A stretch of DNA of 33,232 nt from a bacterium (GCA_040752695.1 JBFMGO010000067.1:1-33232); one strand, 5' to 3'; positions 1 through 26,166 are shown, numbered from the stretch's first letter. Translations and numbers: made by a program. Notes: generated by a model from the sequence alone, not told the origin.

Positions 1-1181
1 ATGATACTCATAATCGAGAAAAAAGCCAACTGGTGATATCCCTGAACATGCGAGAAGAAAAAGGCCACGAAAATAGCGACCGTGGTCAGGGCTCCGGTTA
101 TTACCGGCCAGGTTATTTTTTTCAGGTTATCGGACGGGTTATCCCTGGAGCGAACAACTGCCGTGTAGACATAAATTCCATAATCTATGACAAATCCGAT
201 GACAACGGCCCCCATGCCTATAACTAAATAGGATAATTTCCTGAATACCAGGGATGAAAGGTTTGTGGAAACGAGGATAGTGGCCAGGGGCAGTAAAAAA
301 ACCGCGACTGCCCTGATGTCCTTGAAAAAGAGCAGGAATAAGAGAAAAAAACCAATGGAGGCGATGATAGTCATGGTTCGTACATCTTTTTTTATGACTT
401 CTTCATTGCTTACCGAGTGAAGATGTCCGGCTACGATGTCTGCCGAAACAAAGGCAGGCAAAGCATTCAAGCGGTCACGTAAATAGGATCGCAATGCACG
501 CGATGCGAATCCATCGGTGAGCAGCACCGGAGTTTCAAGGATGAGCAGGGCATGCTGTGCGTCTTTACTGATAAAGTGTCCATCTTCGATTGTAACGTCG
601 TATCCCAGACTGGTAGACAGGTTTTGGAGATTGTGTAGTATCCTGTTCTTTATCCCCAAAGGATCGGAGCGAATGAAGGGCGCCGTAAAACTGCCGGACG
701 GAAGTGTCAGTTGTTGAAAATTCCTGGCCAGTTGAGCTCTTACCCCATCTGGAGTGATCGATTGTTCGATGCGGGAAAGATCCTTTTGATCGAGCAGTTG
801 CGGAGCGCAGGTCATAAGGCTGCCTATTCCTTCGAATAGTTCCTCTTCTGCGATTCCCCTTATCACTTCTGTCACCAGGGGCGGCTTGAGAGAATCCGCC
901 AGTTGATCGGCAGCCCGGATAAGGTTCGAATGTCCATAACCGGCTTCCCCTTCTTTCCCCTGGGGGGAGGATTGAACGCTGAGCGAAATAAAAACCTTAT
1001 CCGAAAGATTGGATTCTCGGAAAAACTTCAGGGTGCGAAAAACCTCTTCATCTCCTGGAAGCATCGTTTCTATCGTATTGTCGAAGGAAATAAAGATGAG
1101 GCCAAAGGCTGAGGCGGCAAGTATCAATCCTATCAGTCCCATGAGCAGATATTTCCCTGGTGAGGAAAAGCGGTAAAACAC
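1..1181 (-). CDS. MMPL/RND-family lipid exporter (ApeM-like predicted exporter), 3'-truncated by window start
   Basis: Absent from the ORF track, presumably because no stop falls inside the window. I translated both ends by hand. GTG at 1181 follows RBS GAGGTG and reads MFYRFSSPGKYLLMGLIGLILAASAFGLIFISFDNTIETMLPGDEEVFRTLKFFRESNLSDKVFISL, an N-terminal TM plus the D..MLP pattern of MMPL proteins. The frame ends ...FFSHVQGYHQLAFFSIMSI at the edge. It directly follows a LolA-like gene, as in APE-type clusters. Confidence 0.85.
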   Translation of the reverse strand, partial: MFYRFSSPGKYLLMGLIGLILAASAFGLIFISFDNTIETMLPGDEEVFRTLKFFRESNLSDKVFISLSVQSSPQGKEGEAGYGHSNLIRAADQLADSLKPPLVTEVIRGIAEEELFEGIGSLMTCAPQLLDQKDLSRIEQSITPDGVRAQLARNFQQLTLPSGSFTAPFIRSDPLGIKNRILHNLQNLSTSLGYDVTIEDGHFISKDAQHALLILETPVLLTDGFASRALRSYLRDRLNALPAFVSADIVAGHLHSVSNEEVIKKDVRTMTIIASIGFFLLFLLFFKDIRAVAVFLLPLATILVSTNLSSLVFRKLSYLVIGMGAVVIGFVIDYGIYVYTAVVRSRDNPSDNLKKITWPVITGALTTVAIFVAFFFSHVQGYHQLAFFSIMSI

Positions 1182-1182: not shown

Positions 1183-2034
1183 TTATTTCACCTCGTCAGC
1201 GATATTCTCTTTAGATTTACCCGCACGGGAACCGTTCCTCCCGGCATCCTGAGAGAAGGTGATTTTCCCCGCTTCCCAGGCTGTGGCATCGATAGGGACA
1301 TTCAGCTTCGTGTCGGTAAAGGTAAGGAGCGTACTGTCTTTGTTTTTTTCCTCGATGGAAATCTTTTTAATATACTGCTCATCTTTATCGAAGGTAACGG
1401 TGACACTGGTTATCGCTTTGTCCGCCATGCTGTTTTGGCGGGGATGGAACACAAGGCAAACAGGAGCGGAAGACAGCATGGTTATATTGTATTGTTCAAG
1501 CAGCGAGGTATAGGTACCACAGAACCATTCCCTCAATTGCTGAGTGACGATTTTATATCCGGTATTTTTTGACAGGGACACGTGCTGGATTTTATTGGTA
1601 TCTTCATCCCATTGCGTCACCGAGTTATCTTTTATGATCAGGGAATAGCGGACCGGCTCTTTGACATGCCAGGCGAAAAGGTTCGGCTTTTGTATGAAAA
1701 TAGCCCCTGTTAACATGAGCTTCCGGTCAAAAACAGCCAGGTTTTTTTCCTGGCTGAAGCTGGTTGCAAGGGTCTTTACCCTGGACATTTTCTCTTGCAG
1801 TCCGCTCAGCACTGCGGTCAGGTCCGGATTAGCGGGCGATGCGGTTTTTTGTGCTCCGTCTTGCACCGTCACCTGCCGCTCAGCCGCTTCCTGTGCTGCC
1901 CCGTCCTGCACAGCCGCCTGCCGCTCAGCCGCTTCCTGCCCCGCCGCCGGGAGGGGACGAGAGAGGAGACTGAACAAGAATGAGCACAGCATGAACACGA
2001 GCGCTTTTTGTTTCATTCGCTTCATTCGCTTCAA
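1183..2034 (-). CDS. LolA-like outer-membrane lipoprotein/lipid carrier protein (ApeL-like), signal peptide
   Basis: Signal peptide (MKQKALVFMLCSFLFSLLSRPLPAA), then LolA-fold motifs TLATSFSQEK...GAIFIQKPNLFAWHVKEP...LVFHPR...ISIEEKNKDSTLLTF. The TTG start overlaps the upstream TGA; two alternative ATGs follow within the 9-bp repeat. Confidence 0.85.
   Translation of the reverse strand: MKRMKRMKQKALVFMLCSFLFSLLSRPLPAAGQEAAERQAAVQDGAAQEAAERQVTVQDGAQKTASPANPDLTAVLSGLQEKMSRVKTLATSFSQEKNLAVFDRKLMLTGAIFIQKPNLFAWHVKEPVRYSLIIKDNSVTQWDEDTNKIQHVSLSKNTGYKIVTQQLREWFCGTYTSLLEQYNITMLSSAPVCLVFHPRQNSMADKAITSVTVTFDKDEQYIKKISIEEKNKDSTLLTFTDTKLNVPIDATAWEAGKITFSQDAGRNGSRAGKSKENIADEVK
1856..1938. repeat. 45-bp-period in-frame tandem duplication in the LolA-like N-terminal linker
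   Basis: ccgtcttgcaccgtcacctgccgctcagccgcttcctg (1856-1893) recurs as ccgtcctgcacagccgcctgccgctcagccgcttcctg (1901-1938), encoding QEAAERQ(AA/VT)VQDGA twice. Confidence 0.9.
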
Positions 2035-3521
2035 TCGGATTCCCCCTGCACGCTGTTTTGCCAGACTTTTATTTCCCCTTTGGCCAGCACCTGGCTGTTT
2101 CGTGAAACGGTTCCTCTCACCAGGGCAAAATCACCGAATTGGACAAACCGTGTCATCGATATGGTCAGAATATCGCCGACCGATGCGCTGCCCGATATTT
2201 CCAGATTTTTGGCTCCCAGAAGGAACCCTTCAGGAGCTGATTGGGCTATGCCCATGTATTTGAACCCTTTTTGAGCTGCAACTGCCTGGGCCATCATTTC
2301 AAGGTAGATGGCCTCATCGACCATCCCCTGTTCATCGACAAAGGGCATGCCTTCTTGGATGGTCACGGAAACCTTCACCGATCCTTCGGCGATCTCGTCG
2401 AGAGTATCGATAACCCGCATGGTTCCTTTCTGCGGGATGATCTCGTCGACCGCCGTGGGCAGACAGACGATTTCTTCCTGACGATCGAGATTTCTCCAGC
2501 ACAGAGGGTCCGAGGCCAGATAGTCTCCGGTCAATTGGTAAGCTGCACCTCTACAGCCATAGCATTCCTTCGATTTCTCGCAGGTGCGGCAGGGACCTTT
2601 GATAGTGGCGGGAAAAGCTTTCAGATCCTGAATAATCTCGCTTCCCTGAAGGATATCGGCGAGCTTTTGCTTTCGAATGTTCCCCACCGGTATCGTTACC
2701 CCGACGCAGGGCAAAACTTCCCCGTGCGAATTGACGTAGCAGGAAAACTGGTGCCGCAGGCATTTATTTCCGATCAGAGGAGGCTGCGGGTCCCAGGAAA
2801 GGCCATACCGCTCGCGGTCCAGAGCGGCAATCCGCTGAAAGACATCATATACTTCTTTTGTATCGACCGCCAGCCAGTCGTTCTTTTTGGCCCTGCCTTG
2901 AGGAGTAATCATTTCGAAATAGGGAGCGATGTTCTGGTCGCGCAGCCATTGCCACATGCCTGCCAATTCATCGATATTTTGCCGGCAGATTATGGTGCTG
3001 ACCCCTAAATGGACATTCCCGGAAGGGTAGCCCGCCTGTTTCAGGTGATGAAAAGCGGCCTGTATGACTTTGTATGCCCCGTTTTTTCCGGCCAGCTTAT
3101 CCTGGATCTTTTCATCGTGGGTGTTCATTTTTAAAACCACCATTACCTGGTGGTCGAATAAAAACCTGGCCACATCGGCGGTTATTTGAAAGCCGTTGGT
3201 AAACAGTTCGATCGCGACATCCTGCTGCCGGATAAAGGCGATCATGTCCAGGATGTGCTGATAGGCCATCGGCTCTCCGCCGAGGATGACGATTTTTTTA
3301 ACTCCAAGATCCCTGGCTTGCAGGATAACGTCCCTGATTTCCTCTTTAGTCAGTTCATCTTTTAAAAAGGATTCCGGCGGAAGATAACAATACGAGCAAC
3401 GGAAATTGCATTGCAGGCTGAATTCGATTTCCATGGAGAGCAGCCGGTTGGTTCTCATCGCTTCTTCGATTTCTTCCCGGCTGAATTCAAAACTGTGAAT
3501 CCGACTCTGGCAGTTTAGCAT
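2031..3521 (-). CDS. Radical SAM/SPASM protein fused to a C-terminal FabA/FabZ-like hotdog (ApeP-like) domain
   Basis: CNFRCSYC (CxxxCxxC) and LGGEP. SPASM cysteines: CYVNSHGEVLPC...CRTCEKSKECYGCRGAAY...DPLC. The last ~140 aa (IPQKGTMRVID...EMMAQAVAAQKG...GFLLGAK...VGDILTI...AKGEIKV) match the hotdog dehydratase pattern. Confidence 0.9.
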   Translation of the reverse strand: MLNCQSRIHSFEFSREEIEEAMRTNRLLSMEIEFSLQCNFRCSYCYLPPESFLKDELTKEEIRDVILQARDLGVKKIVILGGEPMAYQHILDMIAFIRQQDVAIELFTNGFQITADVARFLFDHQVMVVLKMNTHDEKIQDKLAGKNGAYKVIQAAFHHLKQAGYPSGNVHLGVSTIICRQNIDELAGMWQWLRDQNIAPYFEMITPQGRAKKNDWLAVDTKEVYDVFQRIAALDRERYGLSWDPQPPLIGNKCLRHQFSCYVNSHGEVLPCVGVTIPVGNIRKQKLADILQGSEIIQDLKAFPATIKGPCRTCEKSKECYGCRGAAYQLTGDYLASDPLCWRNLDRQEEIVCLPTAVDEIIPQKGTMRVIDTLDEIAEGSVKVSVTIQEGMPFVDEQGMVDEAIYLEMMAQAVAAQKGFKYMGIAQSAPEGFLLGAKNLEISGSASVGDILTISMTRFVQFGDFALVRGTVSRNSQVLAKGEIKVWQNSVQGESD

Positions 3522-3629: not shown

Positions 3630-4952
3630 CTACCTTCTATCTATGTAACGAATTGGTTTTCTCGATCTTGGGCTGTATACCTGTTGCCTTACAGCCTCTA
3701 TGGATTCAATCACCACCGATGGTTTTACGCGCAGCCGCGCCTTAAGTTGATCCTGTATAACCTCTTCTGTTGTCACCCGGTCCGTCGTGCCTTTTGTTTC
3801 GTCCACAGCCACATGGACGGTGAGGTTATCGGACAATTCACTCTCCCTGGTCACCACAAGATAATATTCCTGTATGGCCTTCATTTCTTCCAGTGCCGAG
3901 TACACTGCCTGGGGATAGAGCGTAGTTCCCCGTATTTTCATCATCTGGTTTTTTCTTCCCAGAACAGGCCCGAGCCTCGGAGAGTACCTTCCGCAGAGGC
4001 ATGGTTCATCGATCAGGAAACTCATATCGCCGGTTTTAAACCGTATAAGCGGCATCCCTTCGACCTGCAGCGGCGTTATCACCACCTCCCCCACAGTCCC
4101 GGGCGGAAGCACCCGGCCATCTCTATCGATAATTTCAACAACCGCCAGATCAGGATGGAGGTGTCCACCCTGCCGGATGCTGCATTCGCAGAAAGTGGTC
4201 ACTACTTCTGAAGAAGCGTAGGTAGAATATATTTTGGCCTGCCAGATGGTTTCCAGATCTTCTCCGATTTTCAAAAGGGCAAGGCGCCTGTCCCGTACCG
4301 GCTCACCGATACAAACAAGACTGGATATCCCGGATTGCCCCGGAGCTGCTCCTTTTTCCAGGAGATAGAGCCCCAATTTCTTCAAAAAAGTCGGGACTCC
4401 GACGATGACCGTAGGATTCATCCTCTTGATAATTTCCCAGTGACTTTCCACACTGTTCTGGCCGCTTCGTATGGCTGCTGCTCCGACACTTCGAACCCCT
4501 AAAAAATAGGCCAGGCCAGCCACGAAGCACCGGTCTATGGTGCAGGTCAGCAGCACTACATCATCACTGGTCATTCCACACCCTTTAAATGACATCTCCT
4601 CGTTATAGGCGAGCCGCCTTAAGTCATGATCCGTGTACATTACGGGAGTCGGATGGCCGGTTGTTCCCGATGATAAAACGATATCGACGATCCGGCTTCG
4701 GGGAACCGCGCAGAAGTCTTCGTTGTACCTTTCGATTTCGGATTTATCGGTCAAGGGAATCTGAGCCAGCCGGTCCAGGATCATCTCCCCCTGATTGTCG
4801 GCTGTAGCAGCACAATCCTTCAACACGCGCCGGTAATAAGGTGAATGTTCACAGCAATAGGCAAGATGCCTCTGCAACAGCGTGTTCTGTACCTTTCTCA
4901 TTGCTTCAGGGCCGGAAAACGAAACATCTCGATACGAGGATAACTCCATCAT
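3630..4952 (-). CDS. Phenylacetate-CoA ligase-like (PaaK family) AMP-dependent ligase
   Basis: P-loop SSGTTGHP, YSTYASSE, ECSIRQGGH, GEVVIT...MPLIRFKTGD, PCLCGR...GRKNQMMKIRGTTLYP, and C-terminal K-PIRYIDRR typical of PaaK. Confidence 0.88.
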   Translation of the reverse strand: MMELSSYRDVSFSGPEAMRKVQNTLLQRHLAYCCEHSPYYRRVLKDCAATADNQGEMILDRLAQIPLTDKSEIERYNEDFCAVPRSRIVDIVLSSGTTGHPTPVMYTDHDLRRLAYNEEMSFKGCGMTSDDVVLLTCTIDRCFVAGLAYFLGVRSVGAAAIRSGQNSVESHWEIIKRMNPTVIVGVPTFLKKLGLYLLEKGAAPGQSGISSLVCIGEPVRDRRLALLKIGEDLETIWQAKIYSTYASSEVVTTFCECSIRQGGHLHPDLAVVEIIDRDGRVLPPGTVGEVVITPLQVEGMPLIRFKTGDMSFLIDEPCLCGRYSPRLGPVLGRKNQMMKIRGTTLYPQAVYSALEEMKAIQEYYLVVTRESELSDNLTVHVAVDETKGTTDRVTTEEVIQDQLKARLRVKPSVVIESIEAVRQQVYSPRSRKPIRYIDRR

Positions 4953-4953: not shown

Positions 4954-5778
4954 CTATTCCCCCTCTCCCTCCATAACAGCTAATTCCTGGGCAATAATAT
5001 CTTTAACCTTGTTTTTCAGTTGAAATGCAGTCAGATCTTTATATTTTTCCCATGGCAGGGCCGGTAACTTATGCATTCTGATTATGCCCGGATGGAGCAT
5101 GAGCGAGCCCCGGCGAGGCTTGTCTTCGTTTCCGGAAATACACAAAGGCACGATCGGGCACCGGGACTTGAGGGCGACCCGAAAGATCGAGCCGTGAAAA
5201 GGCCCCATGTTCCTGCTTCCGGAACGGGTCCCTTCAGGAAAGCAGATGATAGAGACCCCCCGCTTAAGAAGATCGCATGATTTTTGAGAAAATTCTTCAA
5301 ATGACATCTCTTTGATACTCAGATAGCCGGCCAATCGGGCATACATACCCAGAACCGGTATCCGGAAGGGCCATATATTTACCACCTGTACACACTCATA
5401 GGGCAAACAGGCCATTAAAAAGGCATCCGAAGCTGATCGATGATTACAAACGAACAGGTAAGGTCCATCAGGATCGCCTTTTCCAAAATCTCTATAAAAA
5501 ATCCGTATAAAGGGAAACGGAAAAACCTTTATGATAATAAAACCGTACCAGCTTATGGCTCGACGGAATTGTTTCATGATGCTGCGGCGTGGCATGAATA
5601 ACCAAAAAAGGGCAATATACACGGTGAACAGTGGTATGCTGCTTGCGGAGAATAAGAAGAATGACAGATAGAAAATTGTGTTGAGAAGTACTGCCTTTAA
5701 GCCATTCATGTACTGGTTTTTTTTGCTTTGGAAGTATTCAAGGTACCAACAAGAGGTTTTGATGCCTGCCTTTCTCAC
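4954..5778 (-). CDS. Lysophospholipid/1-acyl-glycerol-3-phosphate acyltransferase family (PlsC-like)
   Basis: NHRSASD (HX4D) and FPEGTRS motifs with N-terminal TM helices. The start is either GTG 5778 (GTGA overlap with the ACP stop) or ATG 5709. Confidence 0.88.
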   Translation of the reverse strand: MRKAGIKTSCWYLEYFQSKKNQYMNGLKAVLLNTIFYLSFFLFSASSIPLFTVYIALFWLFMPRRSIMKQFRRAISWYGFIIIKVFPFPFIRIFYRDFGKGDPDGPYLFVCNHRSASDAFLMACLPYECVQVVNIWPFRIPVLGMYARLAGYLSIKEMSFEEFSQKSCDLLKRGVSIICFPEGTRSGSRNMGPFHGSIFRVALKSRCPIVPLCISGNEDKPRRGSLMLHPGIIRMHKLPALPWEKYKDLTAFQLKNKVKDIIAQELAVMEGEGE

Positions 5779-6026
5779 TGATCGAGGACTGTGGTGATAG
5801 CGAATTGATAAATATCTTCCAATGTCCGGATCTTTCTCAGGCGGTCGTCGTTGTGTATTTTCACCTTAAATTTGCTCTGCAGAGCCACAACCAAATCGAC
5901 AATGTCCAGGCTGTCCAGTCCTAAATCCTCGAAAATATTCATCTGAGGCTGGAGCTTTTCTTTTTCTATTTCGAATGACTCTTCGAATACCTCGTTCACC
6001 ATAGTGATAATTTCTTGATCGGTCAT
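5775..6026 (-). CDS. acpP: Acyl carrier protein, cluster-specific (83 aa)
   Basis: DLGLDSLDIVDLVV phosphopantetheine Ser motif. Likely start is ATG 6026 after AAAAGGATAACT; the ORF-track extension to 6200 overlaps fabF. Confidence 0.92.
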   Translation of the reverse strand: MTDQEIITMVNEVFEESFEIEKEKLQPQMNIFEDLGLDSLDIVDLVVALQSKFKVKIHNDDRLRKIRTLEDIYQFAITTVLDQ

Positions 6027-6082
6027 AGTTATCCTTTTCGAAGACAGTGAAGCTTGGTGCCTGTCGTAATCGGATAGAGTAC

Positions 6083-7312
6083 CTAATCTACCCTTCTGCA
6101 GGCTATCGCTGCATTGATTCCTCCAAAGGCGAAGCAATTCTTTACCAAGACATTGATTTCCCGCCTCAGCGGTTCTTTTACATGGTAAACCCCCTGGCAT
6201 TCCTGGCTTACGATGTCTAAATTGCGGGTAGGGTAAATCTTCCCTTTTTCCATCATAATCAATGAAACAATCAATTCAATCGATCCCGAAGCCCCCAGGG
6301 TATGTCCCAGGTAGCCTTTAAGACTGCTCACCGGTATGGAATTTCCAAAGATCTTCCGTATTGCTTCGATCTCTTCTTTATCTCCCTGGATAGTTGCTGT
6401 TGCATGGGCATTGACATAATCGACATCATCCGGCTTCAGAGAAGCGTTTTTTAACGAATCGCCAATAGCGCAGGTGATGGCTTCCTTATACGACTGACTG
6501 ACATGAATTCCACTTCCACAGGTGTTATAACCAATGATTTCGGCGTACATTTTGGCTCCCCTTTGCCGTGCATGTTCGTATTCCTCCAGGACGAGCACTC
6601 CGCTTCCTTCACCGCAGACAAGGCCGTCACGTTTGCTGTCGAAAGGACGGGGAGTGAGCGAAGGGGTATGGTTGTACCGGGCCGAGGTTGCAAAGAGAAC
6701 ATCGAAAGAGCCAACCACTGTAGGATGGAGTTCCTCTGCACCGCCGCAAATCATGACTTCCTGCGTTCCAAGCCTGATCAGGTCGTAACCTGTCCCCAGA
6801 GCTTGCAGCGCAGATGCGCAGGCTGCCGAAGTCGCCATGACATAGCCGTTTATTCCCAGATATTGGGATACATTCATGGCAGCGGTATGGGAAACACACT
6901 GAAAAAACTGCATCGATTTTAATTGTGTCAGGTCTTTTCTCGGCAAGAGTATTTCGAAGGCATCATTAAGACTCTCTGCGCTGCCCATGGTCGAGCCAAG
7001 GATGCAGCCTGTCCGGCCTGATGATAAGCTCTCTTTGGCTAATCCCGCATCGGCGATTGCCTGCTGGCTGGCCTGTACGGCAAAGATACTCATCCTTCCC
7101 ATCGACCGCCTGTACTGCCGTGGAATCTCCTTTTCGTTTTTCAACTCGGCAGGTGCCCCCACCAGGCATCGCAGGCCGTTATACTGGTTCCATCCTTCCA
7201 TGTAACGAACGGCGCTTTTGCCCTGTTCTATTCCCTCGATAATGGAAGGGACATCCTGACCTAATCCGCAAACTGCACCGACTCCTGTTATCACTACTCT
7301 TTTCAATTGCAT
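6083..7312 (-). CDS. fabF: Beta-ketoacyl-ACP synthase (FabF/FabB family, 409 aa)
   Basis: MQLKRVVITGVG start overlapping the upstream stop. Catalytic Cys-His-His: SAACASA, NAHATAT, KGYLGHTLGASG; also RPFDSKRDGLV and NCFAFGG. Confidence 0.92.
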   Translation of the reverse strand: MQLKRVVITGVGAVCGLGQDVPSIIEGIEQGKSAVRYMEGWNQYNGLRCLVGAPAELKNEKEIPRQYRRSMGRMSIFAVQASQQAIADAGLAKESLSSGRTGCILGSTMGSAESLNDAFEILLPRKDLTQLKSMQFFQCVSHTAAMNVSQYLGINGYVMATSAACASALQALGTGYDLIRLGTQEVMICGGAEELHPTVVGSFDVLFATSARYNHTPSLTPRPFDSKRDGLVCGEGSGVLVLEEYEHARQRGAKMYAEIIGYNTCGSGIHVSQSYKEAITCAIGDSLKNASLKPDDVDYVNAHATATIQGDKEEIEAIRKIFGNSIPVSSLKGYLGHTLGASGSIELIVSLIMMEKGKIYPTRNLDIVSQECQGVYHVKEPLRREINVLVKNCFAFGGINAAIACRRVD

Positions 7313-8805
7313 AATTTCTGTTCGATAAAGCGGCTGTATTTTTCCCTGCCAACTATACTCCTGCATACGATAAATGAGGACATCATTGCACCTACCAATC
7401 CCGGCAGTACGGCACTTTGACCAGCGGCATAGATATTACGAAGGTGAAGCCTTCCAATGACATTATACTGTCCGACTTTCTGCTTTATTCCGTAGGCTGC
7501 TCCTTCGGGTGAGTGCAGATAGTCCCGGTACGTTAGAATGGAAGCTGCATCCATTATCTTAAGAGAGTTTTGTAACTCCGGATAAAAGGCATGAATACGC
7601 TCGGTTATCCTCTGGATTCGATTCTGTTTGTAAGCTGTATACCCTGCGGGTCTTTTTCCTGTTCTCGAATCTTCCCATGCAGCCACCTGTTGGGGGAACG
7701 AGAGCTCGAAGGCACTTAAAATCCGGCATACCTTTCCATCGATTGTTTCGGGATATTTCATAATAATCAGCGGGGGATTGCCGGAATAGTTCGGATCGAG
7801 CGATTGATTGAAATCAGCCGTCGGCAGCAGTGAAACAATGGAGGACTCGAAATTTTCCCCTGTATCGCCATCCTGTATGATTCCAAAAAGAGAGAAAAAC
7901 CCGGTCGATGATTCAAAGGCTGATACCCGGTTGACAAAGGCTTTGCTCAAATATTCTTTCGGCAGCGCCTTGAGGATTTCCTTGGGATGGATAGTGAAAA
8001 TGCAGCGGTCGCAGGTTATTTCCTCGCCGGTATTCAACCTGAACCGGTTCACGATAGTATCCCTGATATCGACGAAGTCCGTAACAGAGCGGTTGCACAG
8101 GACATCGACCTCATAGCGGTCGAATTGTTCCTTGAAGGCCCTGATGAACGCTTCTCCTCCACCTTCCACGCGGGCCATCGATTCATACTGATTGAAGCAT
8201 ATCCTGCCGTGATTGGCAAAAGAGACTTCCTTTGGTTTCACCCCATAACACAGGCTATATCCCGACAACACACCTTTCAGCAGGTGATTATCGGTCAATT
8301 GGTTCAGGACCTGATCGAGACTGAGGAAATCTTCATCGAGCATGTTCCATGATACGGGAGTGGTATCAAAATCCATGGAAACGGTTTGGGCGCAAACCTT
8401 TTGCAGCATATCGAAATACCGGTCGATGGCGGAACATTGATCGGGGAAGTATCCTTTTAACTTTTTCTTCACGTTATGAATCCCAACCGGCATCTCGTAG
8501 GTCTTTTGCTCGAATTCGAAAACGATCTGATTGGCTTTCTCGTGATGGAGAAAGCGGGGCTTAATATATCTATCGATATCGAGCATCATGAGCATCTGGC
8601 AGAGAATGCCGTTGTGAGAAAGTCCACCGGAAAAATGGAACCCTATGTCAAAGGGAATACCCTGCTTGTAAAACCTGGCCATCGCTCCGCCAAGATGAGG
8701 ATTTTTTTCCACAAGCAGGACCTTGTGCCCATGCATGGCCAGTAAAAGAGCAACGGTCATACCGCTTATTCCGCTGCCTACAACCAAATCATCATAGTTA
8801 TTCAT
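7303..8805 (-). CDS. FAD-dependent oxidoreductase, phytoene desaturase / retinol saturase family
   Basis: Rossmann motif DLVVGSGISG...VLLVEK...GG, FDIGFH, GGGEAF, C-terminal SILTYRDY..SPEGAAYG and NIYAAGQS...PGLVGAMMS. Confidence 0.88.
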   Translation of the reverse strand: MNNYDDLVVGSGISGMTVALLLAMHGHKVLLVEKNPHLGGAMARFYKQGIPFDIGFHFSGGLSHNGILCQMLMMLDIDRYIKPRFLHHEKANQIVFEFEQKTYEMPVGIHNVKKKLKGYFPDQCSAIDRYFDMLQKVCAQTVSMDFDTTPVSWNMLDEDFLSLDQVLNQLTDNHLLKGVLSGYSLCYGVKPKEVSFANHGRICFNQYESMARVEGGGEAFIRAFKEQFDRYEVDVLCNRSVTDFVDIRDTIVNRFRLNTGEEITCDRCIFTIHPKEILKALPKEYLSKAFVNRVSAFESSTGFFSLFGIIQDGDTGENFESSIVSLLPTADFNQSLDPNYSGNPPLIIMKYPETIDGKVCRILSAFELSFPQQVAAWEDSRTGKRPAGYTAYKQNRIQRITERIHAFYPELQNSLKIMDAASILTYRDYLHSPEGAAYGIKQKVGQYNVIGRLHLRNIYAAGQSAVLPGLVGAMMSSFIVCRSIVGREKYSRFIEQKLCN

Positions 8806-8932: not shown

Positions 8933-9655
8933 TTAGATAGCCAGCCCTCCATTGATACCGATGACCTGACCATGAATGTACATATGCTCTTCAGCGCATA
9001 AAAAATGAACAACCGAAGCCACATCTTCCGGGGTCCCGAATCTCTGGAGAGGGATAAGGGGGAGGATCTTGTCTTTTGGAAGTTCCCTGGTCATATCCGT
9101 TTCAATCATTCCCGGAGAAACGACATTGACCAGGATATTCTTTTTCCCGACTTCTCTGGCCAGCGCCTTGGCGGCACCGATGAGCCCCGCCTTTGAAGCG
9201 GAATAATTCACCTGGCCTGCCTGACCGATTTGCCCGGAGACTGAAGATACAACGACAATCCGGCCCCGCTTCTCACGGAGCATGGGGAAGAGCACGAGAT
9301 GCATGACGTTGTAGAAACCGTCAAGGTTGGTGGAAAGAACGCTGTCCCACTCATCTTTAGTCATCCACATGAAAAGATTGTCACGTGCAATGCCAACATT
9401 GTATATCACCGAATGAGGAACATGCGCTTCAATTTTTTCCTCAAGAGCAGCTTTTGTCTCATGATACTGCGAGACGTCAAAAGAAAGCAAATCGCAGAGG
9501 CTGCCCGTTTTTTCTATCTCCGCCCTTACCTCTTGAGCGGCTTTGTGATTTTCCCGATACGCGAGCCAGATGTCAAAGCCCGACTGAGCAAGGCGCAATG
9601 CTATAGCACGTCCTATCCCACGGCTTCCACCGATGATTAAAGCAATCTTATTCAC
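8933..9655 (-). CDS. fabG: 3-oxoacyl-ACP reductase (SDR, 240 aa)
   Basis: GGSRGIG, GIARD, SSVSG..GQAGQVNYSASKAG (YxxxK), VSPGMIETDM, GQVIGINGG. Likely start is GTG 9655 after AGGA. Confidence 0.92.
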   Translation of the reverse strand: MNKIALIIGGSRGIGRAIALRLAQSGFDIWLAYRENHKAAQEVRAEIEKTGSLCDLLSFDVSQYHETKAALEEKIEAHVPHSVIYNVGIARDNLFMWMTKDEWDSVLSTNLDGFYNVMHLVLFPMLREKRGRIVVVSSVSGQIGQAGQVNYSASKAGLIGAAKALAREVGKKNILVNVVSPGMIETDMTRELPKDKILPLIPLQRFGTPEDVASVVHFLCAEEHMYIHGQVIGINGGLAI

Positions 9656-9730
9656 GATAATCCTGCATCCTTTGGTTTTCTCAAGTTGGGGGTAAAAGAA
9701 AGATAAGAATTCCAGCCTGAAACCGTAAAA

Positions 9731-9759
9731 ATCATAATCCAAAATTGCCTAAATAACAA
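9731..9759 (-). promoter_or_regulatory. Candidate sigma70 promoter of the lipid operon
   Basis: Minus strand TTGTTA-17 bp-TATGAT, about 75 bp upstream of the fabG start. Confidence 0.55.
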
Positions 9760-9940: not shown

Positions 9941-11200
9941 GTGAGCGAATTATCAGTCCTTCATGAAATCAGTCAATCTATGCACAGCCTGAATCTTGAT
10001 GAGGTCCTGCACCTCATCCTGCAGGGAGTCACCCGCAGTATAGGCTTTGACCGGGCGCGTCTGTATCTGATCAATGAAAAGGAAAAGATACTGGAATGCA
10101 AGATGGCCGTGGGCATAGAGCAGGAAAAGATTAAAATGATCGCTCTGCCCCTGGGTGGCGAGGGAAGCGTTCTCACCAAGGTGATCTCGGAGAGAAGAGC
10201 CTTTATTATTCAGGATGCCCAGAACGACACCAGGGTCAACCGTGACCTCAAGGAACTGTTTAACCTGCGGTCCTTTGTGGCTGTCCCCCTTCTGGGCCGT
10301 GACCGTGTTATGGGTGCCATTTCTGCTGATTATATCGTCTTTAGTGACAAGGTAATCACCAAGGAGAAGGTCGACTCTCTGATTACCTTTGCCAATCAGG
10401 CAGGCCTGGCCATAGAGAATGCCAAGCTGTATCAGGAACTGAGGCTTTTTAATGAAGAATTGGAGGAGCGGGTCAGGAAAGCTACCGATGATCTCAGAAA
10501 AACCCAGGAACAACTGATTCAATCCAGCCGGCTCTCTGCCCTGGGGCAGCTTGCGGCAGGCGTAGCCCATGAGATCAGGAACCCTTTGACCAGCATCAGG
10601 ATACTGATTCACGCCTTAATGGAGAAACTATCGCCGGAAGATATTCGAAGGGAAGATATCGAGGTTATTGAAAATGAAATCGAGCGCATAAACCAGATCA
10701 TCAAGCAATTTCTCGATTTTGCCCGGCCCAGGAAACCGAAAATGGAGGGGGTCGATATCAATAAGCTCATCCTGGATACGCTCCTTTTGCTCTCTCACGA
10801 GCTCATGGAGCAGGAAGTGTATATAGAGAAGGAGCTTTTGCCCCTGCCCTGCCTTCCGGCAGACCGGGAGCAGATACGGCAGATTTTCCTGAATTTGATT
10901 CTTAATGCCGTGCAGGCCATGCCAGGGGGCGGCAGACTGAAAGTTTCCACAGCCCAAAAGGATTCTCTGGTTATCGTCTCTTTCCAGGATGAAGGAAAAG
11001 GTATTCCAGACGATATCAAGGAGAAGCTTTTCGAACCCTTCTTCACCACCAAAGAGGAAGGAATCGGTCTGGGTCTGTCCATTACCAGGAGAATCGTTGA
11101 AGATCATCGAGGGAAAATTGAGGTTGAAAGCGCCGAAGGCGAAGGAACGACCTTTTCCATTATGCTCCCCGTGGCACAGAACTATCTGAATGGGGCATAA
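9941..11200 (+). CDS. Cytoplasmic GAF-domain sensor histidine kinase (NtrB-like)
   Basis: N-terminal GAF (..SFVAVPL..VMGAI..FANQAGLAIENAKLY), coiled coil, H-box AHEIRNPL, N-box NLILNAVQAM, DEGKGI, FEPFFTTK, GIGLGL. No TM segment. Confidence 0.93.
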   Translation: MSELSVLHEISQSMHSLNLDEVLHLILQGVTRSIGFDRARLYLINEKEKILECKMAVGIEQEKIKMIALPLGGEGSVLTKVISERRAFIIQDAQNDTRVNRDLKELFNLRSFVAVPLLGRDRVMGAISADYIVFSDKVITKEKVDSLITFANQAGLAIENAKLYQELRLFNEELEERVRKATDDLRKTQEQLIQSSRLSALGQLAAGVAHEIRNPLTSIRILIHALMEKLSPEDIRREDIEVIENEIERINQIIKQFLDFARPRKPKMEGVDINKLILDTLLLLSHELMEQEVYIEKELLPLPCLPADREQIRQIFLNLILNAVQAMPGGGRLKVSTAQKDSLVIVSFQDEGKGIPDDIKEKLFEPFFTTKEEGIGLGLSITRRIVEDHRGKIEVESAEGEGTTFSIMLPVAQNYLNGA

Positions 11201-11230
11201 ACCATAAACCTATCCCCAGGCAGGTCATCA

Positions 11231-11260
11231 CCCCTCCCTTTTTACGGAAGGGGGATGGGG
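11231..11260. repeat. Intergenic GC-rich hairpin (REP-like)
   Basis: cccctcccttttt-acg-gaagggggatgggg; carries the same TTACGG loop region as the 3571-3622 hairpin. Confidence 0.5.
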
Positions 11261-11318
11261 GATTTTTTACCCCGGCCTCTCTTGGGACAGGCTCATTTCT
11301 GAATAAGGAAGTAATAAA

Positions 11319-12752
11319 ATGCCTGAGACCATACTCATTGTGGATGACGACCGAGGAATTCGCTATTCCCTGAAAAGAATATTCGAGGAAAAAGGGTACG
11401 AAACGATATCGGCCAGAAATGGCCGTGAAGCCCTGGACCTTTTGGATCGCGGGATATCACCGGATCTTGCCCTGATCGACATTGTCATGCCCGGCCTGTC
11501 AGGGCTCGATCTTCTGGAAACGATCAAACAGAAATACCCAAAGCTTCTGGCCATCATGGTTACTGCCCACGGCACCACGGAACGGGCTATCCGGGCCATG
11601 AAACTGGGGGCTTACGATTATATTCAAAAGCCCTTCGATATGTCCAAGATGTGGACAACCATCCAAAAGGCCCTGGATTTAGCCAAATCCGTCAAGAGCC
11701 CGGTCTCCTATCCTCCCTTCCAGGACAAAAACTACGCTGGAGAAAGCATTATCGGCGATTCACCCCGGATGCAGGATGTCTACAAGATCATTGGCCAGAT
11801 CGCCGGAAGGGATGTCAATGTTCTGCTCATAGGAGAGAGCGGAACGGGAAAGGAACTGGTGGCCAGGGCCATTTACCATCATGGCCGGCGATGCAATTAT
11901 CCTTTTATTTCCATCAACTGCGCCGCAATTCCGGAAAGCCTCCTCGAAAGCGAACTCTTCGGGCATGAGCGGGGCGCTTTTACCGGTGCAGAGTATAAGA
12001 GAATCGGCAGATTCGAACAGGCGCACCGGGGAACCATCTTCCTCGACGAAATCGGCGATATGCCGATCCACATTCAGGCCAAGATCCTGCGGGTGATCCA
12101 GGAGGGTGAGATCCAGAGGCTGGGTAGTTCCGAAAATATCACCGTAGATGTCCGGCTGATTGCCGCCACCAATAAGCATATCGAAGAGGGAGTCCGGGAA
12201 GGCTGGTTTAGAGAGGATCTGTACTACCGGCTGAATGTCCTCACGGTCTACCTCCCGCCCCTAAGGGAGAGAAAAGGGGATATCCCGCAACTCGCGCACT
12301 ATTTTCTTTCCCGCTTTACGAAAGAACTGCAAAAGGATGTAGCCGGGATCAGACCGGAAAGTTTGGACCTTTTATTGCATTACAACTGGCCCGGAAATGT
12401 CAGAGAGCTGGAAAATGTCCTCAAAAGGGCCATTGTGATCTGCAAAGGAAACGAAATCCTGGTCGAGGATCTCCCGGACCCGGTCAAACTGGCGAAAGAG
12501 AAAAAATTCCGGGTTACGGAGGAACATACTCATAAGCTGGAACCACTCCTTGATCAGGTATTCGAGCGGGTTATCGCTCTGGTGAAAGACGAACCCAATA
12601 TGGATGCCATATCCGTCCTGGAGAAGGAAATGATCGAGCGGGCCATCAAGAGAACTTCCGGCAATAAGGTCCAGGCAGCCGCACTTCTCGGCATCAACCG
12701 GAATACCCTGCGCAATAAAATGGAGCGGTACGGGATTTTGGAAAGTGATTGA
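11319..12752 (+). CDS. Sigma54-dependent NtrC/AtoC-family response regulator (REC-AAA+-Fis HTH)
   Basis: REC (IVDDD, LIDIVMP, TAHG, QKPF), Walker [15 protein letters not shown] loop, [25 protein letters not shown], and [20 protein letters not shown]. Confidence 0.95.
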
Positions 12753-14201: not shown

Positions 14202-17200
14202 TCACGGCCAGGTGAAAGAGATGTTCTTTTTAGCCTGTATCCGGTAGATCCGGCTTTGATCCATGAGGAAATTATCGCCGGACGGGTTTTCAAAAAACCA
14301 GGAGCAGCTCTTGAGTAAAGTTCCATCCCAATCATACGCCTGAAGGGAGTAAACGGCATCGGCTCCCAGTTCCCGAAGGAAGGTGAAAGAGGTATAGCCG
14401 GCTCTTCCTGCCGGACAGAACCAGACATTAATGCCTGGCTCCAATGAAACCAGAAGCGGTTCGGGAGGACTGTTAGTATCGAGTACGGTAATCCCGATTT
14501 CTTCACTGTCCATGAGGCCGGAACTTCCCTCCTGGACAGTAAACGTGATGGAATAGGTGCCGCTTTGGTCTGAATCCGGTTTCCAGAAAAAGGTGCTTCC
14601 CTCAAGCTGTGCCCCAAAAGGTAGTGAAGTGGCGGAAAAGTGCAAGATGCCGCCTTCAGCGCAGGTAGCGGAAAGCGTAAACGACAGAGTATCTCCTTCC
14701 GAAACGGTTTTTTCCCCGATGGGATCGAGAACTGGTGGGGTATTCGTTCCATTGTCGATAACGGCAAGGTTCACTTCCTGTTCAACGATAGAATCCCCAT
14801 CGGAAACCTGAAAGCGAATATCGGGATACAGGCCGCTGTCTTCTGGCCCTGGTTTCCACGAGAAGACATTGCCCACCATGGTGGCACCAGATGGAAGTTT
14901 GGAAAGAGATGCCGCATAGATGAGCGGGTCCCCGTCAGGATCGGTGGCTTTGATGGTCAGGGTCAGGGTTTCCCCTTCGACGATCGCTATCATCGGATTG
15001 TCCGCAAGGGGCTCCATGACCGGCGGACGGTTCGCCTCGATGGTAAAGCCATTGGGGAAAAGAGTTGTCGTGCCGTTGGGGTCGGTCAGGGTGACGTGAT
15101 AGGTTCCCGGCGCCAGCCCTTTCGGCGTGGAAAAACTCAATGTCTCGGAATCGGCAGAGGAAACGGCTGAACAGGGCTTGAAGGCCCTTGCGATCATGAG
15201 TCCGTTTCCGATAGCGGCATAGATGTATTCACCCTCTGCCACCACGTCCTCAGCCGGGGTCAGGGCAGGGAGAGAGGCGACAGCCAGAGGATTTTGCGGC
15301 TCCGTGATATCGATAGCCTGAAAGCCTGCTTCTCCTTCCGCTGCGTAAAGATAATTTCCGGAAAGCGAGAGAGCCAGGGGCTCTTCCATGGTCTGGCATG
15401 AGCCTGCAAGATCCGGCGTGGTCGGAGTGTCCGATGTGGCCGGAGTGGTCGATGTGGATGATGTGGATGATAATGTTCCGATGTCGAGTGCCTGCACGCG
15501 GCCATTTTTGTCAGCCAGCCAGGCATATGGTTCACAAACGAGAACGTCCCTGATAGAGCCGATGGAGCCGCCAGAACCCGAAGCCCCGCCAGAGCCGGCA
15601 GAACCGGCTGAGCCGGGAGAGTTGCCGGAAAGCGGTAGGGTAACGATTAAAGAGGGCTTATCGGGGTTCTGGATGTCAAAAATGGCCAGGCCCGCATCCC
15701 CTGCGGCTAAAAAGGCATATTTTTGTGTTGCAAAGACAGCTTCGGCACTGGCCAGCGGCGCATCGAGGCTTCTTACTCCAAGGGGAGCGGGGAGCATCTT
15801 GGCATCCAGGGAAAGGATTTTCAACCCTGCCCTTTTGCTGGCCAAGGAGTCGGCTAAAAAGAGGGTATTATCCCGCATGAAAATTCCCTTTCCTCCCGAG
15901 GTATCGCTGTCGTGGAAAGACACTCGCTGCGGAGACTGCCTGTAGGTGACATTCAGCACCTGCAGCCCGATATCACCATCCATGAGATAAGCATATCCCT
16001 GGCTGATGGCCAGTCCTTCGGGCTTTGCGCCGATGTTCCGGGTCATTCCGCACACAAAGGGGTTTTTGGGGTCTGAAATATCAAGGATCTTCAACCAGTT
16101 ATCTTCGAAAGAAGAATCGGTTCTGCTCAGGACATAGGCATAGGTCCCTTGCACCGTCAGCCCGCTCACCTTGACCCCTGTTGCGCCGTCAAGCAAATCG
16201 GTGAGACTGACGATAGCGGGATTTCCGGGGTTTGCGGCATCCAGAATTTGAAATCCGCCGTGGCTGTCGGCTACAAAGATGTGATTATCGAAAACCTGCG
16301 CGTCCACGGCCCAGCCGGGAGTCTTCTGAAATCCTACCAGGCTGCACCCGGCATCGAGGTCATGGCGGAAAATTTCGACACCGCGATAATCATCCGCCAC
16401 ATAGAGGTAATTTCCCCTGATGGAGACGCGGTGGCACAGACCGGGCGTGGTAAGCTGAGATCTGACGACAGGCAAAAGGGGGGCCTCGATATCCAGAATT
16501 TCCACTCCATCTTGCATCTCAGACAGGTAGAGATGATCCTGGTATTTGTAAATCCCCATCACGAAGCGGCCGGGCCGGGAAAAACTCGCGACAACGGCGG
16601 GATTGCCCGGTTTACTGATATCGATGATCTTCACCCCCGCCCACCCTGCCGCCAGATAGGCATAACTGCCTTCAGCGACAACATCAAGCACATAAATATC
16701 GTGGGTATCACGGGTGCCCGTGTCCTTCGGGGTGAGACAGGAGCCTGCGAGAGCGGGCTGATTCGGATTTCCGATATCAACTATCTGTAATCCCCCGGAG
16801 TCCGAAGCTGCATATAAATACCGGCCATAGAGGGAAATCCGTAAGGTTTCACCGGCTATGGGCAAAGAAGAGACCAGAAAAGGGTGCGAAGGGTCTTGGA
16901 CATTCAAAATCTGCACGCCGGACCCTGTTGCCACATAGGCATAGTTTTCGAACACAATAATATCATGAGCCTTGCGGGGCAGGGAGAAAAAACTCACCGG
17001 CCGGGGGTCGGCAGGGTCTTGGATATGGAAAATCTGAACCCCGCACCCGTCGCTGCCTCTCTCCTCCTGACCGCAGGCCAGATAGGCATAAGAGCCTGAG
17101 CAAAACAGCCCGTTGGCCGGACCTTTCGTGCCGTGGGAGCCCTTCACATAGATTCCGCCTCCCCAAATCGCTGCCCGCATCCGGGGTGAAAGATTCTCCC

Positions 17201-17372
17201 CTTTGATGGTAAGGGTCGTATTTGCTCCCCGTGGTCCATGATCGGGAAAGATACCGGTAATGGACGCGGCTGGCCAGGCAGCACCTGGATGTGCCACCAC
17301 TATCAAGAAGCTTACGAAAAACACCCTTGTGAAAACCACGCCGAGGACTCGACCACACGTAAGTCTTTTCAT
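14202..17372 (-). CDS. Secreted LVIVD-repeat beta-propeller protein with IPT/TIG and two cadherin-like/He_PIG Ig domains
   Basis: Signal peptide; many GxYAYVA..xGLQIxDIxxPxxP repeats; two N.PPV....EG.TL..T..ATD.DG...LP.GA....F.WKP Ig repeats; C-terminal L.PG.N...F....Y.I.A...WP domain. Confidence 0.88.
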   Translation of the reverse strand: MKRLTCGRVLGVVFTRVFFVSFLIVVAHPGAAWPAASITGIFPDHGPRGANTTLTIKGENLSPRMRAAIWGGGIYVKGSHGTKGPANGLFCSGSYAYLACGQEERGSDGCGVQIFHIQDPADPRPVSFFSLPRKAHDIIVFENYAYVATGSGVQILNVQDPSHPFLVSSLPIAGETLRISLYGRYLYAASDSGGLQIVDIGNPNQPALAGSCLTPKDTGTRDTHDIYVLDVVAEGSYAYLAAGWAGVKIIDISKPGNPAVVASFSRPGRFVMGIYKYQDHLYLSEMQDGVEILDIEAPLLPVVRSQLTTPGLCHRVSIRGNYLYVADDYRGVEIFRHDLDAGCSLVGFQKTPGWAVDAQVFDNHIFVADSHGGFQILDAANPGNPAIVSLTDLLDGATGVKVSGLTVQGTYAYVLSRTDSSFEDNWLKILDISDPKNPFVCGMTRNIGAKPEGLAISQGYAYLMDGDIGLQVLNVTYRQSPQRVSFHDSDTSGGKGIFMRDNTLFLADSLASKRAGLKILSLDAKMLPAPLGVRSLDAPLASAEAVFATQKYAFLAAGDAGLAIFDIQNPDKPSLIVTLPLSGNSPGSAGSAGSGGASGSGGSIGSIRDVLVCEPYAWLADKNGRVQALDIGTLSSTSSTSTTPATSDTPTTPDLAGSCQTMEEPLALSLSGNYLYAAEGEAGFQAIDITEPQNPLAVASLPALTPAEDVVAEGEYIYAAIGNGLMIARAFKPCSAVSSADSETLSFSTPKGLAPGTYHVTLTDPNGTTTLFPNGFTIEANRPPVMEPLADNPMIAIVEGETLTLTIKATDPDGDPLIYAASLSKLPSGATMVGNVFSWKPGPEDSGLYPDIRFQVSDGDSIVEQEVNLAVIDNGTNTPPVLDPIGEKTVSEGDTLSFTLSATCAEGGILHFSATSLPFGAQLEGSTFFWKPDSDQSGTYSITFTVQEGSSGLMDSEEIGITVLDTNSPPEPLLVSLEPGINVWFCPAGRAGYTSFTFLRELGADAVYSLQAYDWDGTLLKSCSWFFENPSGDNFLMDQSRIYRIQAKKNISFTWP

Positions 17373-17438
17373 ATCACCCGTTCATCTCACCCGCGTAAGA
17401 CGGCGCTCCCGTGAAGCGGTTATTTTTTCGTTTTTTTA

Positions 17439-19886: not shown

Positions 19887-19889
19887 TCG

Positions 19890-20050
19890 CTTTTCATCTC
19901 CCAGTCCTTCTCGTTCTTCTCGGCCTTCCCGTCTCTCTCTCGTCTTTCTCTGGCTTTTTTTGGCTTTCCTGTCTTTCTTGTTTTTCTTGTCCTTCCTGTC
20001 CTTCTTGTTTTTCTTATCCTTGATCAGCCCTTATCAGTCTTTTATCAGCT
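19890..20050. repeat. Intergenic degenerate 9-bp tandem array, purine-rich on the transcribed strand
   Basis: Minus strand: gataagaaa aacaagaag gacaggaag gacaagaaa aacaagaaa gacaggaaa gccaaaaaa agccagaga aagacgaga gagacggga aggccgaga agaacgaga. Confidence 0.8.
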
Positions 20051-20051
20051 C

Positions 20052-21170: not shown

Positions 21171-21315
21171 CCGTCTCCTGTATCTTATCGTTATGGTATG
21201 CTTACCTTCTATTTGTCGTTTTTTGCCTGTTTTACCAGAAAGAGTGTCTTTCGTTTGATGCCACGAGAGTCAGCCGGGAAGATTACAGGCTCGACACGTC
21301 TTATGCCTGTTTTAA

Positions 21316-21331
21316 TGCAAGATATATACCG
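21316..21331 (-). promoter_or_regulatory. Candidate sigma54 (-24/-12) promoter
   Basis: Minus strand CGGTATATATCTTGCA is GG-N10-GC with a TTGCA -12 element, about 145 bp upstream of the NHL gene at 21170. Confidence 0.55.
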
Positions 21332-21549
21332 AAGATCGGTCAGCCGGGATCTTCGGTCAGCCGGATCGTTCATCCTGGATTTTTTGCCATTTGTTTGTGT
21401 CTGACATGTGAAAAAAAATGCAGATAAGGAAAATTTTTACACGGCGAGAAAAGGACATAGACCGGCTCAAAGGATGCGGAAAAGGCAGATCGGCTGAGAA
21501 GGAATATCGAAAGAGCCCGATGCCCGGCTTTATGATTATCCCAAGAAGG

Positions 21550-22641: not shown

Positions 22642-22724
22642 GGGGTTCCCTCATTGATAGATTCTTTTTGCTTTATGGGTGGATAAGGAAAGTTCGGTTA
22701 TGTAAGCCGGTTATGAGTGAACAA

Positions 22725-22753
22725 ACCATATCAGAAAGCTATCTCGAAGTCAA
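22725..22753 (-). promoter_or_regulatory. Candidate sigma70 promoter
   Basis: Minus strand TTGACT-17 bp-TATGGT with a TG extension, upstream of the NHL gene at 22641. Confidence 0.55.
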
Positions 22754-26132: not shown

Positions 26133-26166
26133 TAAACCAGAGGAGACGTGGGATAAGGAAAACTAT

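Follow-up and report, generated by a model that had tools for sequence, protein, structure and literature searches.

A radical SAM/SPASM enzyme fused to a putative ApeP-type dehydratase half in an aryl-polyene-like gene cluster

Results

Architecture of the fusion protein

The DNA analyzed here is a bacterial stretch of 33,232 nucleotides (nt) (GCA_040752695.1, JBFMGO010000067.1:1-33232), referred to below as the window, which is the entire contig C67, one of 239 in a 6.05-Mb assembly. The subject of the analysis is a minus-strand gene, P0001, whose 496-amino-acid (aa) product joins a radical S-adenosylmethionine (SAM) core, a SPASM region and a C-terminal hotdog domain resembling ApeP of aryl polyene (APE) biosynthesis. 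The features of the gene are as follows, with coordinates counted from the first letter of the window.

2031..3521 (-): fusion gene P0001, 496 aa; radical SAM, SPASM and ApeP-like hotdog (open reading frame (ORF), Pfam, AlphaFold2 (AF2) model)
2961..3425 (-): radical SAM core, aa 33-187 (PF04055, 76.7 bits, cut-off 29.5)
3387..3410 (-): CX3CX2C motif CNFRCSYC, aa 38-45 (C38, C42, C45), putative ligands of the SAM-binding [4Fe-4S] cluster
2499..2762 (-): SPASM region, aa 254-341, with eight Cys (PF13186, 38.0 bits over aa 254-315, cut-off 21.5)
2046..2459 (-): ApeP-like hotdog, aa 355-492, Glu-bearing and His-less, putative half-dehydratase (6qsr_B by sequence and by fold)
2298..2300 (-): codon of Glu408, within YLEMMAQ, putative catalytic acid

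The ORF is a single open frame of 496 aa with no interruption, and an earlier note on this DNA, which described one ORF joining a CxxxCxxC core, a full SPASM Cys set and a hotdog domain of about 140 aa, was correct in both architecture and coordinates. Among 8000 scored candidates, 2241 homologues were retrieved at E <= 0.001, of which the best 120 were examined. All 120 are 476-519 aa long, are 55-74% identical to the fusion and contain the same three Pfam families in co-linear order; the CX3CX2C motif, the CX2CX5CX2-3C block and the ExxAQ motif were each kept in 120/120. Within the phylum, 6 of 20 genomes, including the source genome, gave a match at E <= 1e-60, five spanning approximately the whole protein and one covering residues 7-347 only. 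The AF2 model of the fusion, built on 27 homologues, is compact, with a mean predicted local distance difference test (pLDDT) score of 87.6 and a predicted TM-score (pTM) of 0.87. Judged by these comparisons, the fusion is genuine and not an artefact, its recurrence going far past what chance would give. The missed stop or frameshift near position 2460 that the earlier note had named as a possible flaw was ruled out by the co-linearity across homologues, as far as sequence comparison reaches. One orthologue from the same family (G001:C214:6503-7960) has a single in-frame TAG inside the match, for which sequencing error, a pseudogene or recoding are all possible.

The CNFRCSYC motif is at least 90% conserved in an alignment of 27 sequences (A1). 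The Cys residues of the SPASM region lie at positions 254, 261, 272, 311, 314, 320, 323 and 341; C261, C311, C314, C320 and C341 are invariant in A1 and the other three are at least 90% conserved. Eight Cys would be enough for two auxiliary [4Fe-4S] clusters, and the gene is predicted to encode a three-cluster radical SAM/SPASM enzyme capable of SAM cleavage. When the N-terminal two thirds of the model were compared with the PDB using Foldseek, SkfB, SuiB, PqqE, CteB and anSME were matched. The protein shares the CX3CX2C motif and the full SPASM Cys set with AhbD, NirJ, PqqE, MftC, anSME, SkfB, SuiB and CteB. Unlike these enzymes, the fusion lacks a precursor-peptide recognition element (RRE) and any peptide-binding domain, its context is neither tetrapyrrole- nor peptide-related, and its C-terminal extension appears to be an acyl-carrier-protein dehydratase half. 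No Pfam match was obtained N-terminal to residue 33, and therefore no peptide-recognition domain is assigned there. A peptide-maturase reading was rejected on this result and on the lack of any PqqD or RRE family among the neighbouring genes, small ORFs not having been screened for precursors.

Glu and His on separate proteins

The C-terminal 149 aa, compared by sequence with solved structures, gave the ApeP chain 6qsr_B as best relative (E = 3.2e-7). By fold, Foldseek matched the C-terminal domain to the same chain with a TM-score of 0.80 (on target) and a root-mean-square deviation of 2.3 Å over 141 columns at 23% identity; the next matches were amxFabZ and then FabZ. The assignment of an ApeP-like hotdog in the earlier note was thus upheld, and the motifs that it quoted are all present (EMMAQ within YLEMMAQ, GFLLG, MPF and IPQ). 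No His occurs in aa 267-496, residue 266 being the last His of the protein, and E408 is invariant in both alignments that cover it (27/27 in A1 and 18/18 in A3).

A library search with the domain only returned 851 proteins at E <= 0.001. The best 150 of these comprise 77 stand-alone proteins (<=200 aa), 33 tandem forms (271-330 aa) and 27 long fusions (>=430 aa), and ExxAQ was found in 146/150. The FabZ-type His motif GHF was found in 27/33 tandem forms and in none of the stand-alone proteins (0/77) or long fusions (0/27); in the five tandem forms sampled, the GHF half was FabA/ApeI-like in every case (5/5). In the alignments of solved chains, the corresponding stretch of ApeP (6qsr_B) has IEMMAQ without GHFP, and ApeI has GHFP together with Gln in place of Glu. 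On these comparisons the His-less state is the family norm for ApeP-type halves and is neither a loss nor a defect. The description of the domain as lacking the catalytic His is therefore accurate for the residue count, but not as a loss, since GHF is confined to the ApeI-like halves of tandems. Because the lack of His is the ApeP norm, the domain probably functions as one half of a dehydratase and is more than a dock; of the two roles that had been suggested for it, dock or dehydratase half, the second fits, an ApeI-like GHFP partner being encoded in the cluster.

Natural proteins of ~295 aa (P0187, P0188, P0192, P0195 and P0205) consist of an ApeP-like half bearing the Glu and, after it, an ApeI/FabA-like half bearing GHFP. 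By their motifs, these ApeP-ApeI tandems are a single-chain version of the heterodimer.

According to excerpts of PMC8041823, ApeI and ApeP together make up a dehydratase, a heterodimer that has one active site. The ApeI:ApeP complex of Xenorhabdus doucetiae (PDB 6QSR) resembles the present system in that the hotdog is nearest to ApeP and its partner nearest to ApeI among solved chains, with Glu in the ApeP-type half and the GHFP His in the ApeI-type half. In Acinetobacter baumannii, according to the same excerpts, the ligase ApeH carries ApeI fused at its C-terminus, a precedent for one half being fused to another pathway enzyme (PMC8041823). Known APE clusters differ in having no radical SAM/SPASM enzyme, whereas here the ApeP half is fused to one.

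The genome that carries the fusion also encodes an ApeI-like protein of 161 aa, P0271, on contig C148 (L026:9109-9594, minus strand). Its GHFP-type motif is GHFPDRPILPGV, within the fuller stretch GFKGHFPDRPILPGVCKIQ; the His is present and Gln stands where FabZ has Glu. Its best solved relative is ApeI (6qsr_A, E = 9.7e-5), and His39 and Gln53 are invariant in 9/9 aligned ApeI-like proteins. P0271 also has a Pro-rich insertion of ~27 aa, at about aa 101-127, which none of the 8 aligned relatives shares.

A multimer prediction with an ApeI-like protein, which the earlier note had proposed, was obtained for the hotdog (aa 350-496) and P0271. The predicted complex scored 0.87, compared with 0.00 for the best of three controls, on a scale whose mark is reached by 58/80 solved complexes and by 2/110 mismatched pairs. 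Contact agreement between runs was at least 97% and the pLDDT of the partner at least 78. The predicted interface contains fusion residues 407-408 and partner residues 34-41, including E408 and His39. Since a like complex, 6QSR, has already been solved, this result shows likeness and not binding.

Pfam scans showed no other dehydratase gene in the cluster on C67 or C148, and we infer that the hotdog half and the ApeI-like protein make up the only dehydratase of the cluster. Canonical FabZ copies occur elsewhere in the genome, on C27, C83 (299-1581) and C105 (3-440), the C83 and C105 copies lying at contig ends and the C83 copy following a FabG fragment and preceding a 273-aa ORF. These copies probably belong to housekeeping type II fatty acid synthesis (FAS), outside this cluster.

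The gene cluster and its conservation

The fusion lies within a run of genes on the same strand. Its other members in the window are listed below in order of position.

3..1181 (-): RND/MMPL-type exporter (ApeM-like), N-terminal 393 aa; runs off the contig end and continues on C148
1183..2034 (-): LolA-like carrier (ApeL-like) (PF03548, 65 bits; NF053544 LolA2_flexi, 91, cut-off 125)
3630..4952 (-): aryl/acyl-CoA (or acyl carrier protein (ACP)) ligase, FlxY/PaaK-like (AMP-binding Pfam; NF053551, 457.8 bits, cut-off 520)
4954..5778 (-): lysophospholipid-type acyltransferase (ApeD-like, lysophosphatidic acid acyltransferase (LPAAT) type) (PF01553, 72.9 bits)
5775..6200 (-): acyl carrier protein (PF00550; ACP equivalogs just under their cut-offs)
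6083..7366 (-): beta-ketoacyl-ACP synthase (KS), ApeO-like (N- and C-terminal KS Pfam; NF006587, 439.5 bits, cut-off 470)
7303..8805 (-): CrtI/CrtD-like enzyme of the flavin adenine dinucleotide (FAD) amine-oxidase family, 'phytoene desaturase-like' (PF01593, PF13450; no NCBIfam at cut-off)
8933..9742 (-): 3-oxoacyl-ACP reductase, FabG/ApeQ/FlxB-like, first gene of the operon (NF004200, 298 bits, cut-off 273)

With the fusion, nine cluster genes are found in the window, all on the minus strand and in the transcription order FabG, CrtI, KS, ACP, acyltransferase, ligase, fusion, LolA, RND. The start of the LolA-like gene overlaps the stop of the fusion by 4 nt. The PP-binding domain of the ACP sits at aa 70-133 of its ORF, and the real start is therefore probably further in. 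The reductase scored 295 bits against NF053542 FlxB (cut-off 340).

Because the RND exporter gene is split between C67 (at the 1-3 end of the window) and C148 (L026, 10274-11524), the cluster is broken by the assembly. On C148 the C-terminal half of the exporter is followed by DUF3261, the ApeI-like P0271, a 4HBT thioesterase, a second KS (7434-8687), a 234-aa protein, two B12-binding radical SAM proteins, a GT2-DUF2062 glycosyltransferase and a lipid-A-type (LpxL-like) acyltransferase. The 234-aa protein has no Pfam match; its counterpart at locus L022 has a weak match to the KS N-terminal family (E = 1.5e-6). One B12-radical SAM protein (L026:3910-5292, minus strand) is a TIGR04072 member with 609.7 bits against a cut-off of 360, and the adjacent, divergent one (L026:5289-6605, minus strand) reaches 62.6 bits with its best family, far below cut-off. 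One ACP was seen in the cluster by Pfam, and no starter-forming enzyme of the TAL or UbiC type was found by Pfam among the cluster proteins scanned.

Divergent from the first gene of the cluster, positions 9941-12752 (+) encode a GAF-histidine kinase and a sigma-54-dependent NtrC-type response regulator, which may regulate the cluster. Beyond them, 14202-29952 (-) holds secreted-type proteins of 1056 aa (LVIVD repeats, Ig-like) and 815 aa (Big_5), two NHL/beta-propeller proteins and two multi-PAS hybrid histidine kinases of 1051 and 1261 aa.

The order of the cluster is kept in metagenome-assembled genomes (MAGs) of Desulfobacterales, Omnitrophota and Nitrospirota/Thermodesulfovibrionia. Neighbours were counted only at loci with enough flank, and the metagenome set is the best 80 of 393 loci, retrieved with an alignment of distant fused relatives as query. 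The ligase was found upstream at 11/11 genome and 40/46 metagenome loci, the acyltransferase near the fusion at 11/11 and 34/38, and the CrtI-like gene at 11/11 and 20/24. Corresponding counts were 12/14 and 55/60 for LolA, 11/12 and 37/40 for RND, and 4/5 and 13/15 for the B12-radical SAM gene. The ApeI-like gene was found at 9/18 genome loci; where the downstream flank extended for at least 5 kb, it was present downstream at 8/8 genome and 23/26 metagenome loci. The fusion itself was kept at 15/18 of the genome loci found with P0001 and at 80/80 metagenome loci, the latter with fused proteins as the query. The homologues are tightly linked to ACP, KS and ketoreductase (KR) genes, in agreement with the association with FAS/ACP genes that had been expected of them.

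Distant fused relatives keep E408, C311 and C341 without exception, and at C314 and C320 conservation reaches at least 90%. Fused relatives without CX3CX2C are P0128, P0133, P0137, P0138, P0141, P0147, P0154, P0160, P0163, P0168, P0175, P0185, P0196, P0198 and P0204. A metagenome scan returned mostly canonical forms and a few candidates without the motif (L027, L030, L054 and L061), set in the order ACP-acyltransferase-fusion-(LolA-RND)-ApeI-KS at high-GC loci where the ORF calls are rough. Longer ORFs were also observed (P0142, 720 aa; P0156, 717 aa; L027:1296-3350), which are either fusions or read-through gene calls; their forms are radical SAM-SPASM-hotdog-LolA and acyltransferase-(degenerate radical SAM)-SPASM-hotdog.

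Comparison with known clusters

The core of APE clusters, as given in excerpts of bioRxiv 10.1101/2020.12.19.423268, consists of apeO/R (KS), apeE/F (ACP), apeC (chain length factor), apeI/P (dehydratase), apeQ (KR) and apeM (transporter). The cluster described here is alike in having two KS, FabG, an ApeP-like domain with an ApeI-like protein and an RND exporter, and further in its LolA, DUF3261, 4HBT thioesterase, LPAAT and GT2 genes. It differs from the Escherichia coli ape gene table, as excerpted from PMC8253772, by the addition of a CrtI-like enzyme, one SPASM enzyme and two B12-radical SAM enzymes. By gene content, the cluster is an APE-like type II polyketide synthase (PKS)/FAS line with an outer-membrane export set and four redox or radical genes.

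The cluster belongs to the 'ladderane-like' lipid type (Rattray 2009, Javidpour 2016). Synteny of this cluster type between Kuenenia and Desulfotalea was described in 2009 (excerpts of PMC2649909), and the clusters concerned, kuste3335-3352 and DP1853/DP1855, have been discussed for ladderane or polyunsaturated fatty acid synthesis (excerpts of PMC2649909 and PMC4790861). As described there, these clusters share with the present one FabG, a phytoene-desaturase-like enzyme, FabF-type KSs, ACP, a phenylacetyl-CoA-ligase-like enzyme, a glycosyltransferase and radical SAM enzymes; the comparison is by description only, and the excerpts of both papers make no mention of a hotdog on the radical SAM proteins. 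Excerpts of PMC2649909 also state that no ladderanes were found in Desulfotalea. 'Ladderane' biosynthetic gene clusters have been reported in Desulfobacterota and Omnitrophota MAGs, with a gene inventory, as excerpted from PMC9902471, that matches the present one. Clusters with a member of TIGR04072, a family named 'lipid biosynthesis B12-binding/radical SAM protein', count among the ladderane-like ones, and such a member lies in the same cluster here.

Discussion

Taken together, these observations are best read as a radical SAM/SPASM enzyme that carries an ApeP-type dehydratase half and performs radical tailoring of an ACP-bound chain, a reading that is considered fairly probable. The hotdog half would provide the catalytic Glu, E408, and the ApeI-like protein encoded later in the same operon would provide the His, the pair forming one dehydratase with a single active site as in APE biosynthesis. 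A carrier-bound chain would visit the dehydratase in each elongation round, and so the fusion would hold a radical SAM centre on the APE-like type II PKS/FAS line. The radical SAM part would then abstract a hydrogen atom from an ACP-tethered 3-hydroxyacyl, enoyl or polyenoyl intermediate, and the second electron would leave by way of the two auxiliary clusters, for a net oxygen-independent two-electron tailoring such as desaturation or the formation of a C-C or C-X bond. SPASM enzymes with two auxiliary clusters (anSME, AhbD, PqqE, MftC) typically couple hydrogen-atom abstraction to removal of a second electron. Given this coupling, the simplest supposition is that the tethered chain undergoes an oxygen-free two-electron tailoring. 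What the analysis establishes is the architecture and its conservation, the complementary Glu/His split and the kept gene neighbourhood, together with a predicted heterodimer; the dehydratase activity, an ACP-bound radical substrate and the kind of radical reaction are inferred.

A stronger form, in which the radical centre would act iteratively, once per round, on the enoyl-ACP delivered by the adjoining ApeP:ApeI site and so introduce rings, cross-links or unusual unsaturation, is considered quite unlikely. The radical SAM cyclopropanase Jaw5 is reportedly HemN-like, not a SPASM enzyme, and is said not to be fused to a dehydratase. Excerpts of PMC13459092 describe how Jaw5 and C10P, working with an iterative PKS, modify a carrier-bound enoyl during chain growth, and they offer a precedent for a radical SAM enzyme acting on such a substrate. 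A 'ring-by-ring' logic has been proposed, though never demonstrated, for ladderanes (type c, PMC10139942). If the iterative form were true, an oxygen-free radical station would be built into a type II PKS/FAS; tailoring of this kind during chain growth is so far known only for Jaw5-type cyclopropanases.

Several results weigh against radical tailoring of an ACP-bound chain. No NCBIfam equivalog was reached at cut-off by the fusion (TIGR04545 AhbD, 122.5 against 500; TIGR04055 NirJ2, 117.9 against 500; TIGR02109 PqqE, 113.8 against 381), so its radical SAM chemistry is not readable from homology; the protein is, by its family matches, a member of the radical SAM and SPASM families, but of no curated SPASM equivalog. 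Relatives that contain only the radical SAM part exist at 55-59% identity, and two of the three (L024 and L025) lie in contexts unrelated to lipid synthesis. The hotdog scored 17.4 bits (E = 0.0034, aa 363-492) against PF22817 ApeP-like, and 20.2 bits in the whole-genome scan, below the cut-off of 27, though the domain is by its sequence and fold matches homologous to ApeP. The complex prediction may be a memory of 6QSR. In addition, 15/17 distant fused relatives aligned have no CX3CX2C, yet they keep E408 and most SPASM Cys, and the proteins of a 57-member ESM Atlas cluster, found most often in Planctomycetota, match the ApeP-like and SPASM families but not Radical_SAM. From the distant fused relatives it follows that radical chemistry is dispensable in part of the wider family.

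The radical SAM part could instead act off the ACP-bound chain, on an aromatic starter acid, a lipid or sugar head group or another pathway protein, with the fusion securing only co-expression and co-localization. This is unlikely. It draws on the radical SAM-only relatives found outside lipid clusters (L024 and L025), on the closest families AhbD, NirJ and PqqE, which act on free cofactors or peptides, and on the cluster proteins scanned, which include no TAL- or UbiC-type starter enzyme. The third radical SAM-only relative, L023, follows ACP-KS-acyltransferase and is ~200 nt from its contig end; all three reached no NCBIfam cut-off, as was the case for the fusion, and gave no substrate clue. 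What speaks against action off the chain is the nature of the fusion partner, one half of an enzyme that would receive the ACP-bound chain in every cycle, together with the compact model (pTM 0.87) and the retention of the fusion at the genome loci and, with fused proteins as query, at the metagenome loci.

Also unlikely is a reading in which the N-terminal domain belongs to the dehydratase complex chiefly as an Fe-S module, structural or for electron transfer, that might work for the nearby CrtI-like flavoenzyme or B12-radical SAM enzymes; SAM-dependent chemistry on the chain would then not be its main task. In the relatives devoid of CX3CX2C, the N-terminal domain would be unable to cleave SAM and would have to serve another purpose, structural or in electron transfer. 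The invariance of E408, C311 and C341 where the motif is missing, the Atlas cluster, and a quick tree requiring at least two changes of the motif label (with long branches and an arbitrary root) are all consistent with such a module. The presence of CX3CX2C in 120/120 of the best homologues, the orthologue group to which the protein itself belongs, argues for catalysis in this protein and would be hard to explain otherwise, and the strong Radical_SAM score of 76.7 bits points the same way.

It is very improbable that the hotdog only docks acyl-ACP without catalysis, or is thioesterase-like, and has no part in a working dehydratase: it has no His of its own and scores under the PF22817 cut-off, but it keeps an invariant Glu at the FabZ/ApeP position, a His-bearing ApeI-like partner is conserved in the cluster and forms a heterodimer with it in prediction, natural ApeP-ApeI tandem proteins exist, and the cluster showed no further dehydratase gene on either C67 or C148. 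The chance that the fusion stems from misassembly or misannotation, through a missed stop or frameshift near nt 2460, is practically negligible given the uninterrupted frame, the co-linear architecture in 120/120 best homologues and four other genomes of the phylum, and the compact AF2 model.

Radical tailoring of an ACP-bound chain by an enzyme with a built-in dehydratase half remains the favoured reading. No description of a radical SAM-hotdog/ApeP fusion was found in the literature searched, supplements being outside its scope. Precomputed Pfam annotations already show the architecture of the fusion, and clusters of this type have been under discussion since 2009, so the fusion is not categorically new. 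Its interest lies in the protein architecture itself, by which the dehydratase of a carrier-protein assembly line and a radical SAM/SPASM enzyme are joined. The fusion, its ApeI-like partner and the ACP make up a small, defined system for asking whether radical chemistry is wired into chain building. The finding is relevant, too, to what is made by the 'ladderane' clusters that genome mining has reported widely beyond anammox bacteria (excerpts of PMC9902471), a question since 2009. Hundreds of uncultured anaerobes carry a member of the family, among them Desulfobacterales, Omnitrophota, Nitrospirota, Lentisphaerota and Planctomycetota.

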